Part shown: positions 885 through 13,608 of the stretch, piece by piece
How the letters are laid out: each line of letters begins with the position of its first letter
Position numbering within the stretch: the first letter of the stretch is position 1
NCBI RefSeq assembly: GCF_044324785.1
Contig: NZ_CP172127.1
Source: Escherichia coli
GTDB lineage: Bacteria > Pseudomonadota > Gammaproteobacteria > Enterobacterales > Enterobacteriaceae
DNA length: 64,000 nt
Strand: one strand, 5' to 3'
The notes under the pieces: generated by a model
Told to the model about the DNA's origin: nothing
Databases searched by the model: none
Seen by the model: the letters and a program-made list of their open reading frames with translations, nothing else
Made by a program: the position numbers and the translations under genes

Positions 885-1313
885 CTATTTTGTCTGGTTT
901 TTGGCTTCAAGTAGTTCTTTTAGCAGTAGATCGAAGTGCTCTCTTTTTTCTTTTAGCTCATTGATTAGTTTATTTTTTTCGCTCTCAGGCAGTCCTCTGA
1001 ATAGTTGCAGTAGAGCCTGTTCTTGTGGGGTTAGTTCTTGATTGTAATTACCGGGGTGTAGCGTGGATTCATCCAAATATTCTCCTTCATTCATGAAGAA
1101 AAAATGAACAGGGTATCCGGTCACTTTTGCTAGCTTGTCTAATTTATCTTTTCTTGGCGTTACCCCATTACACCATGCCTGAACTGATTGAGCTGTAACC
1201 CCAATATGGCGAGCTAACTCAGATTGAGACCAGCCTAAGTCTTTTAGAATCCGTTGTAGTCGGCTAGCAAAAGCCATGTTTTTCGTTTTTGTGTTCATAC
1301 CGTAAGGATACAA
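885..1313 (-). CDS. phage repressor, XRE-family HTH (CI-like, short form without S24 peptidase domain)
   Basis: HTH segment SQSELARHIGVTAQSVQAWCNG; divergent from a Cro-like gene; true start probably internal Met (1298 or 1277), possibly leaderless. Confidence 0.7.
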   Translation of the reverse strand: MYPYGMNTKTKNMAFASRLQRILKDLGWSQSELARHIGVTAQSVQAWCNGVTPRKDKLDKLAKVTGYPVHFFFMNEGEYLDESTLHPGNYNQELTPQEQALLQLFRGLPESEKNKLINELKEKREHFDLLLKELLEAKNQTK

Positions 1314-5282: not shown

Positions 5283-5590
5283 AATACAAACGGTGGGTGC
5301 GTGCGGAAGTCGTAATCATCAAACAATGTGCGGGCAGCATGACAGTTGAACGTATAGGGCAGCTTATTGGAAGAACCGGTGCAGCGGTACGCACAAAAGC
5401 GCGCGAGCTGAAAATCTGTATGTATCTGCGGGGTAATTATCACCAGTCAGCAAAATACTGCCAGGAGGATATCGAGCTGGCAAGGGAATTACATCAGTCG
5501 GGTATTAATCGCCAGGATATCGCAGAAAAACTCGAAATGCCGATCGGAGCGGTGAATCAGTTTGTTTATTTTGAGCGGAGGATTTCATGA
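5279..5590 (+). CDS. hypothetical protein, possible HTH DNA-binding (103 aa)
   Basis: overlapping start/stop with neighbours; two HTH-like segments. Confidence 0.4.
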   Translation: MKYKRWVRAEVVIIKQCAGSMTVERIGQLIGRTGAAVRTKARELKICMYLRGNYHQSAKYCQEDIELARELHQSGINRQDIAEKLEMPIGAVNQFVYFERRIS

Positions 5591-6220: not shown

Positions 6221-6312
6221 ATTGACTTAGAAAAAGCCCGGGGCTATAGTTTCCGCGCAGCCGCAAAATCGGTTGCCGGGATTGGCGTCCCGGATATCTA
6301 AGTGACGCATAG

Positions 6313-6331
6313 CCGCGTTAGCGGTTTTTTT
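6313..6331 (+). terminator. putative intrinsic terminator
   Basis: ccgcgttagcgg hairpin followed by a T7 run. Confidence 0.45.
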
Positions 6332-6444
6332 ATGTGTTAGGCACGGCCACATTCGCATTATGGTGGGCTGTGTGGGGGCTTCTGCGGAAGCGCCGGGTTC
6401 ACTTAGCCGGTTACGCCAACCCTGCACAGTTCACCACCAGATGA

Positions 6445-7137
6445 TTGGCGTCGCTGGTGGTGATGAAAAAAACACTAAGTGAGGCCACTGCGATGACAAT
6501 CCAAATATCTGCGGAATCCCTTTCTCCGCTACATCATAACCAACTTCCCGTCATCACTACTGAATTGCTTGCCAGTTTGTATGGCACGGAAGTAAATGGT
6601 ATCCAGCAAAACTTCAAGCGCAACATCGCCAGATTTGTCGTAGGAAAGCATTTTTTTAAGCTGGAAGGTAATGAATTACGCGACTTCAAAAACAGACTGA
6701 CAGATAGTCAGTCAGTTGCTAAACATACCCGATCCCTCATTCTCTGGACAGAACGCGGCGCAGCTCGCCATGCCAAAATGCTGGAAACAGAACAGGCCTG
6801 GGAAGTTTTCGAAAAGCTGGAAGATTGTTATTTTAGCCAGCGTCCAGAGAGGCGGAGTACAACTACCGATGACCGTACTCCCTTACGTGATGCCGTTAAT
6901 ATGCTGGTCGGTAAGAAAGGCATGATGTATCCCGATGCCTACACCATGATTCATCAACGCTTCGCCGTCTCTCACATAGAACAACTGTCACAGACGCAAA
7001 TGTTAGAGGCGATTGAATACATCCACTGCCTGCTACTCGATGAAAATCAACCAACCATTCCAGATCACCACTATCAAAAATGGAAAAGTGACCAGAATGC
7101 GCCATGTTGCCAAAGGCGAACATCTGATGACCTTTGA
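6445..7137 (+). CDS. antirepressor-like protein with ORF6N-type N-terminal domain
   Basis: ELLASLYGTEVNGIQQNFKRNIARFVVGKHFFKLEGNELRDF pattern; C-terminal 30 aa look unnatural, possible frameshift into 7013..7270. Confidence 0.5.
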   Translation: MASLVVMKKTLSEATAMTIQISAESLSPLHHNQLPVITTELLASLYGTEVNGIQQNFKRNIARFVVGKHFFKLEGNELRDFKNRLTDSQSVAKHTRSLILWTERGAARHAKMLETEQAWEVFEKLEDCYFSQRPERRSTTTDDRTPLRDAVNMLVGKKGMMYPDAYTMIHQRFAVSHIEQLSQTQMLEAIEYIHCLLLDENQPTIPDHHYQKWKSDQNAPCCQRRTSDDL

Positions 7138-7300: not shown

Positions 7301-7377
7301 ATTTGCGCTTAAAAAGGTATTTAGTCACAACCAGCACGAGGCCGAATACTCTGTCAAAGTACCGCCCATGTAAAACT
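7301..7377. repeat. direct repeat copy A (~77 bp), degenerate copy of the 3' end of gene 10899..11504
   Basis: about 92 percent identical to 10901..10978 with a 1-nt indel. Confidence 0.8.
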
Positions 7378-7447
7378 GTAACGTATGTACTTGATGACTA
7401 AGCTGGCACCAGGTTAACACCAGGCGCCAGCTTGAAGGAAACTTCAG

Positions 7448-8371
7448 TTATTGGTTTCTGAGGAAAGCGATTCTTGAAAGGGTCATTTGCGTCTGGCAGT
7501 CGACCATTTTCTTGACTTCAGCATCTGTTCCCTGCATTGAAACTTTACCGCACATAGCATCCTTAGTTTTGATCCACTGACGCTGAGAAGGCAGCAAATC
7601 TTTTTTCTTCGCCGGGGTTAACTTGCTCCAGACGGTACTCAAATCAGAGTCGGCATTCGCAAATGCCATTCGGGACTGATCAAGGCTGTCAGCTTTTTGT
7701 GGCTGAAGTTGTGCCTGTCTCTCTATTTGCTTCTCCGCCTCATACTTAGCCTGTTCCTGCGCCCTGAGTTGCACCTGTTGTTCCGCTTCAATTTGGCTCT
7801 GTTGGGCATCCTTAGCCTGCTGGATTTTCTGCTGCTCAACGATCGGGTTGATAATAGAAAGTGATGTCAGTAAAGCGGCGCCCACTGATATCGGATTATC
7901 AGAAGAGGTTTTTACAAAAACGTTTTTCTGATCGTCGGTCGCCTGCACGGTGTAGGTGATACGTTTGGAAAAGGCGTTTGCGTTGTTCTCCAAAAACAGG
8001 CTTTCCATTTGCTTGTCGAGATTACGATTAAAATTCTTTCTGTAATCATCAGAAAGCTGGACGTATTCGTTCGCAGGTAGAGTCATCGTCACGGTCCCTT
8101 CACAAGTTTTCATTGTGCTGCCCGTGTCACTTGATGTTGTGGAGATTTCAGAGATGGCTAGTTTGATCTTGTCCAATGTGCTTCGTTTGGTCTGATTAGT
8201 GACATCAGGGTATTTATCGACCTGTTCAGAGAGTCCTTCATAAGCAGATTTTTTTAATAAATCCATAAGCGCTGACTGGGTTATTTCCGAAGAACAACCG
8301 ATCACATCTTTTTTGTTATCACAGCCTGTAAGGGCAATGGCGAGTAAGAGTACTGAGTATTTTAATCTCAT
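7448..8371 (-). CDS. lipoprotein with C-terminal DUF1311 (LprI-like) domain
   Basis: lipobox LTGC after signal peptide; Gln-rich coiled coil; C-terminal QRQWIKTKDAMCG...DCQTQMTLSRIAFL pattern. Confidence 0.55.
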   Translation of the reverse strand: MRLKYSVLLLAIALTGCDNKKDVIGCSSEITQSALMDLLKKSAYEGLSEQVDKYPDVTNQTKRSTLDKIKLAISEISTTSSDTGSTMKTCEGTVTMTLPANEYVQLSDDYRKNFNRNLDKQMESLFLENNANAFSKRITYTVQATDDQKNVFVKTSSDNPISVGAALLTSLSIINPIVEQQKIQQAKDAQQSQIEAEQQVQLRAQEQAKYEAEKQIERQAQLQPQKADSLDQSRMAFANADSDLSTVWSKLTPAKKKDLLPSQRQWIKTKDAMCGKVSMQGTDAEVKKMVDCQTQMTLSRIAFLRNQ

Positions 8372-9398: not shown

Positions 9399-10064
9399 AT
9401 GAAAGCCGACAACTTAAGAATTATAGAGAATGGCAAATATGTTTTCGATATGTTCTTGGATACTGGTGAATTTTACTATACAAGTCATGCCTTTGACACG
9501 AGAGAAGATGCAAAAAGCTGGATGGAAGAATGGCAGATTTGGGCAAATAATGTATCGAGTGGGAAAGTAAGTAGTATTTATTATATTTTACAAGTGCCTG
9601 ATACTTGGGCCGGTTCTTCAGATAAAAATAACCCTTACTCGGGACTTTATGTGAAAATAGGGCGTTCCAATAATGTGCTAAAAAGGTTGTCTAACCTGCA
9701 GACAGGTGCATTTGGTCAATTAATATTACACGCTTTGGAACCTGGTGGTTCAGAAAAAGAAAACTATCTTCATGAAAAATTTAGCAACGAAAGACGTCAA
9801 GGTGAATGGTTTGTTTGTACTAAGGAACTTACCAAGCATATATTTACAACATGGTTTAAAAACAAAATGCTCCCACCAGAACATCAAATAAAAATAATGC
9901 AGCTCGCAGAAAGAATAGGTATTTATTCGCATGTTCATACACTAATGGGGGGGAAGCCAGACTTAGTAAACCCATCTATTAGTGAACCTTGGGAATGCGA
10001 AAAATATGTTTTGGTTGATATGATTTATAGCTCTTTAGCAAAGCAAGTTAATCATAAAAAATAA
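9399..10064 (+). CDS. T5orf172 (MUG113, GIY-YIG-like) domain protein
   Basis: YVKIGRSNNVLKRLSNLQTG ... LHEKFSNERRQGEWF matches the T5orf172 signature; unknown flanking regions. Confidence 0.6.
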   Translation: MKADNLRIIENGKYVFDMFLDTGEFYYTSHAFDTREDAKSWMEEWQIWANNVSSGKVSSIYYILQVPDTWAGSSDKNNPYSGLYVKIGRSNNVLKRLSNLQTGAFGQLILHALEPGGSEKENYLHEKFSNERRQGEWFVCTKELTKHIFTTWFKNKMLPPEHQIKIMQLAERIGIYSHVHTLMGGKPDLVNPSISEPWECEKYVLVDMIYSSLAKQVNHKK

Positions 10065-10384
10065 AGTGTTACATTTTAACCATACAATTATTGATTCACT
10101 AATGAAGAGGTGATTTAAACGTATGAAGTTTTAATAAGCTCCAAGAATATTTTGTCATACATGGGTTAAAGAGTTATATAATAATATCTGCTTCTGGAAT
10201 ACAGCAGACAAGCACCTGCAGATAAAGGTCTGCTGAGAGCGAGAAGCGGATCATACGTTGGAAGTTGTTTAGGCAAATACGTTATAAACGTATTTGATTA
10301 AATTTACTTGGATCATAGTCTTCAATAACGCTTTATTATATTGTTTTTCATGCAGCAAACAGGTTTACAGGTAGGTAATAAGCT

Positions 10385-10789
10385 ATGAGTGGATGGAAAG
10401 AGTCTTTTACATTAGCAGAACAGATACAATTAGCATTAAATTTAGGTTATGAGGCTGTACCAGATGAAGAGGCATATACTGGGGCATACTTCATTAAAGG
10501 TGGTAAGAAGTGGATCTTTAACATCATCGGTCTCAAAAAGACATTGAATATATCTTCAGATGATGAACTAAGAGGGCAGGATTATGATGTTGATATGTAT
10601 TTCGAAATTCGCCAAAATTGGGCACAATACCAAGATATGATCTTTGGAAGCGAAGATATCACTCCTTCACCTAAAAATGAACTTACTTCAATTTACCATG
10701 ACCTGCAGGTAACGGATGAACCCAGGGAAATGGTGTATCTTTCTGATGGGATGTGGCTGGATCCCAACGGACGAATTGTACAACGATAG
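10385..10789 (+). CDS. hypothetical protein (134 aa)
   Basis: ORF in AT-rich island with long AT-rich leader. Confidence 0.4.
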   Translation: MSGWKESFTLAEQIQLALNLGYEAVPDEEAYTGAYFIKGGKKWIFNIIGLKKTLNISSDDELRGQDYDVDMYFEIRQNWAQYQDMIFGSEDITPSPKNELTSIYHDLQVTDEPREMVYLSDGMWLDPNGRIVQR

Positions 10790-10898
10790 CACTCGAACAC
10801 ACTCAGTAATCGTCTATAAGGCCAGCACTTGTTACTTGGTCATTTGGGGTTGCTGGTCTTCTCCATTAAATCGACTAAAGTCTGTTCCATAGAGAGAG

Positions 10899-11504
10899 TT
10901 ACTTGCGTTTAAAAAGGTATTTTGTCACGACCAGCACGAGGCCGAATACCTCTGTCAAAGTACCGCCCATGTACAACTGGAGCGTTAAGTCTTTAAATAC
11001 AAGCCATTCAGCACCAGTGGCAAAAAATACACCATTCATTATCAAAAGCTGGCAAGCAAGGATAATAAGGAACCATTTGCCATAGCGTTTTTTTAGATCG
11101 ATTTCAGCTTCAAAATCTTTGTTGTTGAGTTGTTTGCGCTCATGCTCAGTATCAAGTGAATTCACCTGTTTCACAGATGTGAACTCGGTCAAGATTTTAC
11201 TCTCAGTACGGGTGACTTGTTGAGAGGGGGTAGGAATTGGAATTCTTTTGATTGACGCAGCTACAGCCATTTTGCGAGCTTCGGCAGCTCTTTTTCTGGC
11301 TATTCCGTGAATACGGGCAGACGGTTTTTTTGGAGCATGCGAAACCTTTGTCTGAGGTGAAGTTTCGTCAGGAGACTGAACCGGAGTTTCATCCTCCTCC
11401 GGCTCAACCTCTTCTGCTAACTGACGGTGTAGGTTGAGGGAATCCTTCAGTCGGCGTGCAACTTCCTGTTTGAAACGGCTGTTAAAATCGTCATCCGATG
11501 GCAT
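10899..11504 (-). CDS. membrane-anchored protein (charged N-terminal region, two C-terminal TM helices), partner of ImmA-like peptidase
   Basis: start 9 nt after peptidase stop, RBS inside peptidase 3' end; hydrophobic segments WFLIILACQLLIMNGVFFATGA and LVLVVTKYLF. Confidence 0.55.
   Translation of the reverse strand: MPSDDDFNSRFKQEVARRLKDSLNLHRQLAEEVEPEEDETPVQSPDETSPQTKVSHAPKKPSARIHGIARKRAAEARKMAVAASIKRIPIPTPSQQVTRTESKILTEFTSVKQVNSLDTEHERKQLNNKDFEAEIDLKKRYGKWFLIILACQLLIMNGVFFATGAEWLVFKDLTLQLYMGGTLTEVFGLVLVVTKYLFKRK
10901..10978. repeat. direct repeat copy B (~78 bp), coding for the C-terminus of 10899..11504
   Basis: pairs with 7301..7377. Confidence 0.8.
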
Positions 11505-11513
11505 TCTAAAGCG

Positions 11514-12002
11514 TTACCCCAACCTCAAGTTCTTTAAACGATAAGTCATCGCATCGTCAGATACGCCAAAATGATGCGCCATTATATAACTTGGTTGGCC
11601 GTCAGCGTGCAGTTTTCTGACCTCATCTACCGGCATCAGAAGTTCTGCTGCGAACTTGTTCGCAAAAATTTCATCAGGATGCGTTCCGGCGCTTGCGGTT
11701 TCGCCACGTAAATCAACGTACTCATATTCATCGCTATGCGATGCTTGCCGGGCGATGTAATGCCCCAACTCATGCCCACATGAAAAACGTTGACGAACTT
11801 TGTTGTCATCACTGTTTAGAAAGATCGCTGGATCTTGATCTTTTTGTTTAATCAGTGCGCCAGAAACTTTCCCAGGAAGATCGGTAATAAAAACATCTAA
11901 TCCCATGTCGTGAGCAATTTTCGCTGGATCAACAGGGAAACCACGCCCGCACCAGAACGTGTCCAGCACTCGCCGGGCGTGCTCTCTTGGGTTGGTAGCC
12001 AT
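11514..12002 (-). CDS. ImmA/IrrE-family zinc metallopeptidase (DUF955)
   Basis: HELGHY zinc-binding motif and downstream EIFANKFAAELLMP segment. Confidence 0.7.
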   Translation of the reverse strand: MATNPREHARRVLDTFWCGRGFPVDPAKIAHDMGLDVFITDLPGKVSGALIKQKDQDPAIFLNSDDNKVRQRFSCGHELGHYIARQASHSDEYEYVDLRGETASAGTHPDEIFANKFAAELLMPVDEVRKLHADGQPSYIMAHHFGVSDDAMTYRLKNLRLG

Positions 12003-12075
12003 AGCTCCTCCAGTTACTGCATTACGATTATTGGTCGAAATATAGACAACATGTTCCGTACCACATTCCTGTAAA

Positions 12076-12094
12076 AGTGCAAATTCTGCACTTC
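12076..12094. promoter_or_regulatory. palindromic operator-like site upstream of the peptidase operon
   Basis: aagtgca-aattc-tgcactt, perfect 7-bp arms, about 75-90 bp upstream of the peptidase start. Confidence 0.4.
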
Positions 12095-12435
12095 TGGTAC
12101 GATATTAACTGTTAGTAGTAAAGTCTTCCAGATAAATCACTTTAAAATCGTGTGAATTGCTTGCTTTTTACGCTGCATTGTGGATGGCTCAATGTTTCCA
12201 GTAAAAACATACATGATAATCATGACATTAGTGGTTTTTTAGGCGTCCATCTGTTTCTTAAAAAAATGGATGCCACAAGCGCCCGGATGAGAACAGGAAG
12301 GGAAGGCTATTACATGTGTGATTTATTACATCTGTAAAAAAATACAGATCTAACCTGATCTTTTCATTGAAGTTTTTCTTGGTCCTGGATAGGATCTGGA
12401 GGTTGCGAAGATTTTAGAGTCGCATCAAAGGGAAA

Positions 12436-12461
12436 GCCCTGACAGCGCCAACTGTCAGGGC
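12436..12461. other. perfect 10-bp stem hairpin (gccctgacag / ctgtcagggc) in a 567-bp non-coding stretch
   Basis: inverted repeat with 6-nt loop; T-rich flank on minus strand. Confidence 0.5.
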
Positions 12462-12569
12462 CATACAAAAACATCGGTTAATGCTTTCGTTGAGATCTCG
12501 GTTTGGGAGATTACCTCAACCGGGATCCCGTGTAAAGCATTCATTGCCGAAAATGATATAGGTCAATGA

Positions 12570-12896: not shown

Positions 12897-12966
12897 TAGA
12901 ACCCTGCGATGTGAAAACGAATAATAAATTGTGCAAATAGTGCAGTTTTTATTATTCGAGGTAATT

Positions 12967-13608
12967 ATGAAAACCTTCTATGAGGGCTGGCCTGAAACTT
13001 TCGTTAGCCGGTTAGATATGTTACGGGCGTTGGATGATCGCGGTTCGACCCGGAGGCTCTATCTTGAGCGGACCGGAGCAATATTTGGCGCTCTGGCAGA
13101 AGAGATACGTACAGCCGTTGCCGGGCATCCTGAAACTGACGCGAGTGAACTTGATATCGGGCCGCTATATCGCTATTACAAACGTGGAGAAAAGGGGGAT
13201 CCGCTGGCTGACTTACTTATTAAATTGGCTCCACCAACCTGTGAACGGGTTCGTATATCTCCTGAAGTGTACACAATCCCGTATCTGTTTTTTGCACTGT
13301 TGATAGCGCAAGGCGCTGACAACGATGCCCGAGATTTTTTCAATATGATGATGCGACCGTTGATCATCGCCTACCGCTTCAAACAACTGGCGCGCTACCT
13401 TGGCACGAAGGGCGGAGGACGACCACAGCACAGATTAAAAAGTGAAGCCATTGAACTGGCTGATCGTTTTTTTACTGAAAACCCGACTGCGCCATTATCG
13501 CGTGGTGTGCAATACATATCCGGTATTTTTGTGGCGAAATACTCCGATCCACCTGCAGCCTCGACGATTAGAAAATGGTTAATTTCAATTTACAGGAGTG
13601 ATAAATAA
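12967..13608 (+). CDS. hypothetical protein (about 213 aa from internal ATG with GAGGT RBS)
   Basis: ORF 12931..13608; better start at MKTFYEGW; no recognisable domain. Confidence 0.45.
   Translation: MKTFYEGWPETFVSRLDMLRALDDRGSTRRLYLERTGAIFGALAEEIRTAVAGHPETDASELDIGPLYRYYKRGEKGDPLADLLIKLAPPTCERVRISPEVYTIPYLFFALLIAQGADNDARDFFNMMMRPLIIAYRFKQLARYLGTKGGGRPQHRLKSEAIELADRFFTENPTAPLSRGVQYISGIFVAKYSDPPAASTIRKWLISIYRSDK

Follow-up and report, generated by a model that had tools for sequence, protein, structure and literature searches.

The 64,000-nt stretch of Escherichia coli DNA analysed here (the window) is a lambdoid prophage of Escherichia, with about 97% DNA identity to E. coli prophages and a chromosomal flank from ~44.9 kb on (the msrQ/msrP side) that carries rseX and dsrA. 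Between the replication genes and the Q antiterminator of this prophage, antisense and among small variable genes, lie a gene for a 162-aa zinc peptidase and, downstream of it, a gene for a 201-aa membrane protein (Table 1). The pair is a moron of the prophage. Both of its genes are homologous to a tested toxin-antitoxin system, RosmerTA of Gordonia phage Kita, and sequence comparison places the pair as a proteobacterial member, previously unlabelled, of the Kita RmrA_D25:RmrT_D5 subtype of RosmerTA.

The two open reading frames (ORFs) lie exactly as an initial annotation of this DNA had described them, a HELGH peptidase followed after 9 nt by the 201-aa frame; the peptidase gene ends in TAA (11514..11516), and the ATG of the membrane protein follows the spacer directly. 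The ribosome-binding site that the same annotation placed inside the 3′ end of the peptidase gene is a mixed case. G-rich stretches are present there, GGGG at 11517..11520 and GAGG at 11523..11526, but at 12 and 18 nt from the ATG their spacing is longish, and the site is weakly confirmed; the tight coupling of the two genes is better backed by the gap conserved across loci than by this Shine-Dalgarno-like run. The cassette contains no XRE or helix-turn-helix (HTH) gene, the nearest being a CI-like gene at 885..1313, ~10 kb off as first reported.

The only domain found in the peptidase is the anticipated Pfam PF06114 (Peptidase_M78; residues 32-157, E = 2e-17), and the protein also matches phrog_87, a ‘metallo-protease’. 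Its top Foldseek matches are CapP (7T5T) and IrrE/PprI (3DTE), with 8SLN also present, in agreement with an M78 fold, and its best match among the PADLOC profiles is capP (1.6e-25, profile positions 3-151 of 242). The residues H77, E78, H81 and E111 are invariant in 30/30 non-redundant paired members of the family, and catalysis is therefore under selection. On these sequence and structure comparisons the 162-aa protein is an M78 peptidase with intact catalytic residues.

The 201-aa protein, 100% identical to a protein of E. whittamii, matches phrog_5346 (function not assigned) over its full length (6e-129) and has no match in Pfam, PADLOC (none at E<=1) or NCBIfam. It consists of an N-terminal helix, a variable disordered linker, a predicted docking motif, a juxtamembrane helix and a hairpin of two transmembrane (TM) helices. 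The charged N-terminal region and the two C-terminal hydrophobic helices of the initial annotation are both borne out: the first 140 residues hold 26 K+R and 24 D+E, Kyte-Doolittle hydropathy peaks at residues ~150-157 and ~184, and AlphaFold2 (AF2) predicts helices at 119-164 and 172-197. Because hydropathy, the AF2 helices, the short interhelix loop (AEWLVFKD) and the C-terminal tail KRK agree, we predict an N-in/C-in hairpin with a cytoplasmic N-terminal region of ~140 residues. Enterobacterales members share the N-terminal helix, a linker very variable in length, the sequence ‘QV..LD’, the juxtamembrane helix and two nearly invariant TM helices; within the motif V114 is nearly invariant, and L117 and D118 are invariant. 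An exhaustive search gathered 313 clusters (at the 50% identity level) of this two-TM (2TM) family from several phyla, most of them proteins of 105-150 aa that match residues ~110-201 only, and ‘LD(P)’ is the only cytoplasmic motif conserved across the whole family.

Table 1. Features of the peptidase-membrane protein cassette, in positions of the window
Feature	Position	Strand	Basis
Whole mobile cassette (promoter/5′ region, peptidase, membrane toxin)	10877..12264	-	Edges of homology blocks against otherwise different prophage backgrounds
rmrT-like toxin (by homology): predicted N-in/C-in two-TM protein, 201 aa	10899..11504	-	phrog_5346; alignments A1/A2; hhalign to Kita gp33
Predicted TM helix 2, residues ~173-196; LYMGGTLTEVFGLVLVVTKYLF; T182, E185, G188 invariant	10917..10988	-	Alignments; AF2
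Predicted TM helix 1, residues ~144-164; Q152, N157, G164 conserved	11013..11075	-	Hydropathy; AF2; invariant columns
V-x-x-L-D motif, residues 112-118 (KQVNSLD); predicted peptidase-docking or cleavage segment	11151..11171	-	Conservation; AF2
Intergenic spacer, 9 nt; Shine-Dalgarno-like G-run in last peptidase codons (11517..11526)	11505..11513	-	Sequence
rmrA-like antitoxin (by homology): stand-alone M78 (ImmA/IrrE/CapP-fold) zinc peptidase without HTH or GAF domain	11514..12002	-	PF06114; PADLOC; Foldseek; Kita gp32
Third zinc ligand, E111	11670..11672	-	H81-to-E111 spacing of 30 residues, matching CapP H100/E129
HELGH zinc-binding/catalytic motif (H77, E78, H81)	11760..11774	-	Invariant residues
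Cassette-specific upstream region: 5′ leader and putative own promoter	12003..12264	-	Kept in ST131 and viral-contig copies
Palindrome AAGTGCA-GAATT-TGCACTT (7-bp arms), part of a possible hairpin flanked by CGTACC/GGTACG	12075..12093	.	Sequence

Kinship with the RosmerTA system of phage Kita

RosmerTA systems combine an ImmA-type zinc-peptidase antitoxin with diverse toxins, and in that of phage Kita the toxin, gp33 (RmrT_D5), is a small transmembrane protein that depolarises and permeabilises E. coli membranes, and gp32 (RmrA_D25), a short M78 peptidase, partly neutralises it (PMC10440598). Of the BASEL phages, Bas54 and Bas59 are the two against which the Kita operon protects (Ernits et al., PNAS 2023, PMC10440598). 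Over 93% of its length the window peptidase shares 43.5% identity with Kita gp32, and the hidden Markov model (HMM) of its family scores gp32 at 166.6 bits. For the toxins, the 2TM family profile scores Kita gp33 at 39.5 bits, and hhalign aligns the two with a probability of 96.5% (E = 8.7e-10) over 81 columns that take in the juxtamembrane helix and both TM helices. This toxin homology is visible only by profiles; a tblastn search of 50,697 phage genomes with the 2TM protein gave no match. Gene order is the same in Kita, where the genes overlap by 4 nt. In both cases a short stand-alone M78 peptidase (178 aa in Kita, from a 179-codon ORF) lies directly upstream of a two-TM-hairpin protein; the Kita pair is borne by a temperate phage near the integrase. 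Peptidase and membrane protein act as antitoxin and depolarising toxin, as tested for Kita and, by homology, presumably in the window pair. The systems differ in that Kita is an actinobacterial phage and the window pair belongs to proteobacterial prophages, and in that the 201-aa enterobacterial form has a long linker and an N-terminal helix which the Kita toxin does not have.

The proposal that the pair is a two-gene abortive-infection module fits these results, the unit being a self-contained pair of toxin-antitoxin type with homology to Kita. Its supposed novelty does not survive them: both genes have homologs in a named and tested system, and the pair is not a new kind of system, although a literature search by accession and keyword returned nothing for the exact proteins. 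Canonical RosmerTA systems (Millman et al. 2022; RmrA of ~360-400 aa in PADLOC/DefenseFinder) likewise set a zinc-peptidase antitoxin beside a toxin of otherwise unassigned function and have an antitoxin gene that is essential or hard to delete. In these, RmrA has an Xre HTH at its N terminus and the toxin often lies upstream, whereas the window pair has no HTH. An Xre HTH is described as ‘often’ present in NetFlax node D25; Kita RmrA_D25 is also without one, and an N-terminal HTH is therefore not universal in RosmerTA. Two further phage pairs belong to the same clade of ~160-170-aa peptidases, one in the gp32/gp33 region of Mycobacterium phage Che9c (L068, 27464..28359, adjoining a HicAB-like module) and one in a P2 variant (P2DC1_00041/42; L067, OU784750.1, 31040..32216), with scores of 149 and 103 bits to the family HMM. 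In each the gene after that of the peptidase encodes a small protein for which TM helices are predicted, but these partners have no detectable homology to the 2TM family, which fits the partner (toxin) swapping described for RosmerTA.

The best sequence and structure matches of the peptidase domain, with the same HExxH + Glu zinc site, come from CapP/CapH, IrrE/DdrO and ImmA/ImmR, from which the window pair differs in architecture and in apparent role. CapP and IrrE carry a C-terminal GAF domain, and CapP (7T5T) is a 278-aa protein of peptidase, HTH-like and GAF parts, against 162 aa here. CapP is accompanied by an HTH repressor, CapH, and a regulated CBASS-type operon, neither of which lies beside the window cassette or the other loci. 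The ImmR/ImmA and IrrE/DdrO proteases have or adjoin an XRE repressor substrate, whereas the partner in the window is a membrane protein. CapP, IrrE and ImmA are activated by single-stranded DNA or stress, and transcription is switched on; the window protease, in contrast, appears to be protective.

Pairing, mobility and insertion depletion

The membrane protein led to 39 loci (24 in genomes and 15 full-length viral ones, retrieved with alignment A3 as query), every one of which has a ~162-aa M78 gene directly upstream on the same strand; in 38 of them an intact membrane gene follows at a distance of -14..+15 nt. The exception, L031 from a Bathymodiolus japonicus methanotrophic symbiont, has an intact peptidase gene (162 aa) and, after a 165-nt gap, a decayed membrane gene of 54 codons; its sequence is consistent with an orphan-antitoxin-like state of decay in which the toxin is lost before the antitoxin. 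Six distant loci, reached from distant peptidase homologs, show the same pairing. Hosts include Escherichia, Serratia, Salmonella, Pectobacterium, Pseudoalteromonas, Silvimonas, Nitrospirae, Desulfobacterota and a Rhodococcus metagenome-assembled genome (MAG). Settings range from a position after Q in a Serratia prophage, beside the integrase of a Rac-like prophage and beside an integrase remnant near Salmonella pathogenicity island 5 (SPI-5), to P4-like elements, Tn7-like elements and a site between flagellar genes on the Pseudoalteromonas chromosome. All-against-all clustering of flanking ORFs found no third conserved gene and no XRE partner, only local synteny in Pseudoalteromonas. The pair is thus a strict, mobile two-gene unit. 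An apparent HTH extension on the Rhodococcus MAG peptidase (L036) was discarded, since the long ORF reads through from upstream and contains nothing that resembles an HTH.

Of 5,426 complete E. coli genomes, ~430-450 (~8%) carry the cassette, at ~96% identity, and many of the sampled carriers are labelled O25b:H4-ST131 (sequence type 131, a pandemic clone) or human isolates. CRISPR-array spacers of several E. coli genomes (H79-H81, H93) match it at 97-100% identity, with at least three distinct protospacers within the 1.1 kb of coding sequence (~10916..10948, ~11764..11796 and 11907..11939). In a Serratia marcescens prophage (L002, ~5350..5500) the cassette is placed on the late-operon strand, after Q and before the lysis genes, and is preceded by a terminator-like hairpin and T-run. 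The stx genes of Stx phages have the same location, and lytic growth may therefore bring additional expression of the Serratia copy through Q antitermination.

Evidence on the roles of the two genes comes from native hosts. In strain EC958 the genes scored as essential in that strain specifically (Phan 2013, Table S3) include EC958_2158 (‘COG2856 predicted Zn peptidase, DUF955’) and EC958_2173, the XRE repressor of the prophage; the neighbours of EC958_2158, EC958_2157 and EC958_2159, are among the non-essential genes. We take EC958_2158 to be the cassette peptidase from its annotation and from the gene order in EC958 (77-aa gene, peptidase WP_000224749.1, 2TM protein WP_001138663.1). Two independent ST131 transposon libraries, read out by sequencing of insertion sites (TraDIS), were re-analysed uniformly, the score being log2(insertion index / cut-off) with values <=0 taken as essential. 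These scores are those of an ST131 copy 96% identical to the window cassette; they are -0.084 in EC958 and -0.072 in NCTC 13441 for the peptidase gene, 2.72 and 3.71 for the 2TM gene, and 3.91 and 4.80 for the upstream 77-aa gene, so that insertions are ~7-29 fold rarer in the peptidase gene than in its neighbours. A depleted peptidase gene beside a tolerant membrane-protein gene is the pattern characteristic of an antitoxin gene that precedes an expressed toxin gene; it also implies expression of the operon in the lysogen.

The insertion data also bear on the role initially proposed for the protease, the licensing of a membrane effector: a latent peptidase would, on a phage or DNA-damage signal, cut the N-terminal region off an inert membrane protein and so activate a gasdermin-like pore. 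In its favour, every stand-alone M78 peptidase so far characterised is activated by a signal and turns on a response, as in ImmA/ImmR and IrrE/DdrO; the nearest structures of the window peptidase are CapP and IrrE, and the predicted docking motif lies exactly between the variable N-terminal region and the conserved membrane domain. Loss of such a protease should be harmless, yet in both ST131 libraries it is the peptidase gene, and not the effector gene, that is depleted of insertions, and the Kita toxin is toxic alone and relieved by its peptidase (PMC10440598). The window peptidase is without the GAF sensor domain of CapP and IrrE, and many 2TM family members have merely ~25-30 poorly conserved residues ahead of the motif, little for an inhibitory domain. 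In bacterial gasdermin-type pore formers the effector is inert until cleaved and the protease is dispensable, unlike the insertion-depleted gene here, and no similarity to gasdermins was seen in sequence or fold. Since TraDIS and the Kita neutralisation both point to an antitoxin, we regard protease licensing as quite improbable.

The initial annotation had also considered a displaced ImmA, that is, a peptidase that cleaves the CI-like repressor at 885..1313 to induce the prophage, with the membrane protein as sensor or anchor. ImmA-family proteases cleave XRE repressors, and this CI is short (142 aa) and lacks an S24 domain. The pair, however, travels as a unit, a discrete 1.39-kb cassette; it is found with repressors of unrelated kinds and outside prophages (on the Pseudoalteromonas chromosome, in Tn7-like and P4-like elements, at the SPI-5 integrase remnant), and the Kita pair needs no phage repressor to function in E. 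coli (PMC10440598). Loss of an induction protease should do no harm, yet insertions are depleted. The prophage moreover has an anti-repressor of its own under C4/IsrK antisense control, and a displaced ImmA is highly unlikely. On the plus strand at 6244..7137, Rfam identifies c4-a1b1 targets (6244..6296), IsrK (6257..6331) and a C4 antisense RNA (6356..6441), directly followed by the anti-repressor gene (6445..7137; phrog_4792, 1e-112). By its sequence this is a P1 immI/Gifsy-like antisense-controlled Ant module, which probably accounts for inactivation of the short CI.

In sum, the pair is most readily understood as a RosmerTA-type toxin-antitoxin and abortive-infection cassette, carried as a moron, whose expression in the lysogen is driven by the cassette's own upstream region, an assignment to which we give a probability of roughly 0.7. 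Several observations weigh against it. The Kita toxin alignment has 23% identity; the PADLOC RmrT profiles miss the 2TM protein, the RmrA profiles align to the peptidase only over their own peptidase part (from ~145 of 357-400 positions), and together they do not call the window pair as a complete system. The peptidase gene scores at the threshold, with insertions depleted and not absent, in a copy other than that of the window. Neither clpP nor lon is essential in the ST131 strains, unlike in hosts of some other RosmerTA systems (for clpP, E. coli E101 and the Pectobacteriaceae cases). For Kita itself AlphaFold failed to model the complex (pDockQ 0.05), the antitoxin neutralises the toxin only in part, and the range of defence is narrow (PMC10440598). 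Finally, the position of the docked strand in the active-site cleft, discussed below, is inferred from a model. A dependence on ClpP or Lon as in other RosmerTA systems was considered and set aside, the ST131 TraDIS data showing none.

The same antitoxin-like essentiality would be expected if the pair merely stabilised the prophage or competed between mobile elements, with no phage defence in its native hosts. The pair is always on mobile or horizontally acquired DNA, the defence of its Kita homolog reaches only two BASEL phages (PMC10440598), and the remnant of a second copy at 7303..7378 suggests turnover of the cassette. RosmerTA systems nevertheless score repeatedly as defence, and the cassette occupies typical moron/defence slots. 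Pure addiction is unlikely on this evidence; both roles are compatible, and it differs from the RosmerTA defence reading in emphasis more than in mechanism.

Cassette borders, upstream region and neighbouring genes

The borders of the cassette were set by comparing copies in other prophage backgrounds, where the homology block extends over 10877..12264 at 98.7% identity in one copy (L037) and over 10877..12258 in an ST131 copy (L061), giving a length of 1.39 kb. The ~260 nt upstream of the peptidase gene are shared with the ST131 and viral copies and are unrelated to the upstream DNA of other cassette lineages. No strong sigma-70 consensus promoter was found in this region, and no convincing LexA box upstream of the peptidase gene.

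The palindrome noted in this region by the initial annotation is real but was placed one base off (12076..12094), and it is not statistically remarkable. Perfect inverted repeats with 7-bp arms and loops of 3-8 nt number 76 in the window (22 +/- 5 in shuffled sequence), and because there are so many the palindrome carries no weight alone. It is limited to the cassette lineage of the window: in Salmonella L007 the inner hairpin is swapped for AGAAGC...GCTTCT with the outer CGTACC/GGTACG arms retained, and other lineages bear different palindromes, TTGTATACAA, CTTGTACAAG and TATACAG-A-CTGTATA. The predicted folding of the upstream hairpin is no better than that of shuffles (z -1.6 and +0.7). A role as operator was rejected on these grounds, namely unrelated upstream regions, shuffle-level stability and the abundance of such repeats in the window, together with the absence of a DNA-binding protein from the cassette.

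Just beyond the upstream border, in window-specific DNA ~430 nt upstream of the peptidase gene, lies a strong terminator-like hairpin on the minus strand (12435..12462; 12-bp stem, 7 GC pairs); the equivalent spot in ST131 holds the 77-aa gene WP_000536919.1. Further along, a 225-aa ORF on the plus strand (12931..13608), a full-length phrog_5215 match (function not assigned), is kept beside the cassette in E. coli copies (WP_000847617.1-like) and has no match among defence profiles. Downstream of the cassette the ST131 slot carries a 232-aa protein, WP_000536231.1 (EC958_2160, phrog_5606; L061 7840..8538, EC958 2070693..2071391), with a weak PADLOC match to RTasTM (1.8e-5); its gene scores as essential in EC958 (-0.60) and not in NCTC 13441 (1.73). 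The window counterpart of that slot (~9399..10789) holds a GIY-YIG-family gene (9399..10064) and a 134-aa ORF (10385..10789). The second-copy remnant is a 77-nt sequence on the minus strand that matches 10903..10979, the 3′ end of the membrane-toxin gene, at 93.5% identity and is situated directly downstream of an LprI-like gene (7448..8371). It explains the ‘second place’ found in the majority of E. coli carriers, as well as viral loci L052-L060, and suggests an earlier cassette at another moron slot that has since been replaced.

Predicted docking and a possible mechanism

How the peptidase might restrain the toxin is suggested by a model of the pair. AF2 was run on a linker fusion of the two proteins with a paired alignment, and the control used the same 30 sequences without the peptidase; the models were compared by predicted local distance difference test (pLDDT) and by secondary structure, from which the contacts described here are predicted. 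In the fusion, residues 109-118 of the membrane protein (TSVKQVNSLD) reach a pLDDT of 86 and form a beta-strand at 112-114. Without the peptidase the pLDDT is 51 in block 101-110 and 58 in block 111-120, with the segment predicted as coil, so that the motif becomes ordered only with the peptidase, while confidence in the N-terminal helix and in the TM hairpin does not differ between the two models. These models suggest that the peptidase docks on the V-x-x-L-D motif just before the membrane domain, with the strand presumably in the active-site cleft, and we predict that it binds this segment in the fashion of a substrate and cleaves there.

The mechanism we propose begins with the toxin, the 201-aa protein, whose hairpin of polar-faced TM helices (Q152, N157, T182, E185 and a GG motif) would oligomerise in the inner membrane and dissipate the membrane potential. 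The antitoxin would be the 162-aa cytoplasmic M78 zinc peptidase, made first from the tightly coupled upstream cistron, and it would dock on V-x-x-L-D just upstream of the juxtamembrane helix, where most probably cleavage would keep a pore-competent form from building up. Particular phages would remove this protection by inhibiting the protease, by out-titrating it or by shutting off its synthesis; the membrane would then depolarise, and the infected cell would die or arrest before phage release. Neutralisation by site-specific cleavage at the motif, a proteolytic guard in which infection is sensed as lost or competitively blocked proteolysis, is the tentative part of this scheme, to which we assign somewhat less than even odds. 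Defence by the window ortholog itself would follow from the Kita precedent.

The assignment gives a predicted function to a pair annotated as an ‘ImmA/IrrE metallo-endopeptidase’ and a ‘hypothetical protein’ (phrog_5346), and to a 2TM family that is widespread and missed by current defence-system profiles. It accounts for EC958_2158, a published but uninterpreted ST131-specific ‘essential’ gene described as a ‘predicted Zn peptidase’. For the study of how RosmerTA protease antitoxins hold back their toxins and of how phages set them off, the cassette also provides a genetically tractable system in its native E. coli host, together with a predicted docking or cleavage motif. If neutralisation does proceed by proteolysis at this motif, the pair would supply the first concrete mechanism for RosmerTA protease antitoxins in a native E. 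coli (ST131) model, and ~8% of complete E. coli genomes, mostly ST131, would carry an unannotated membrane-depolarising abortive-infection system of relevance to phage therapy.

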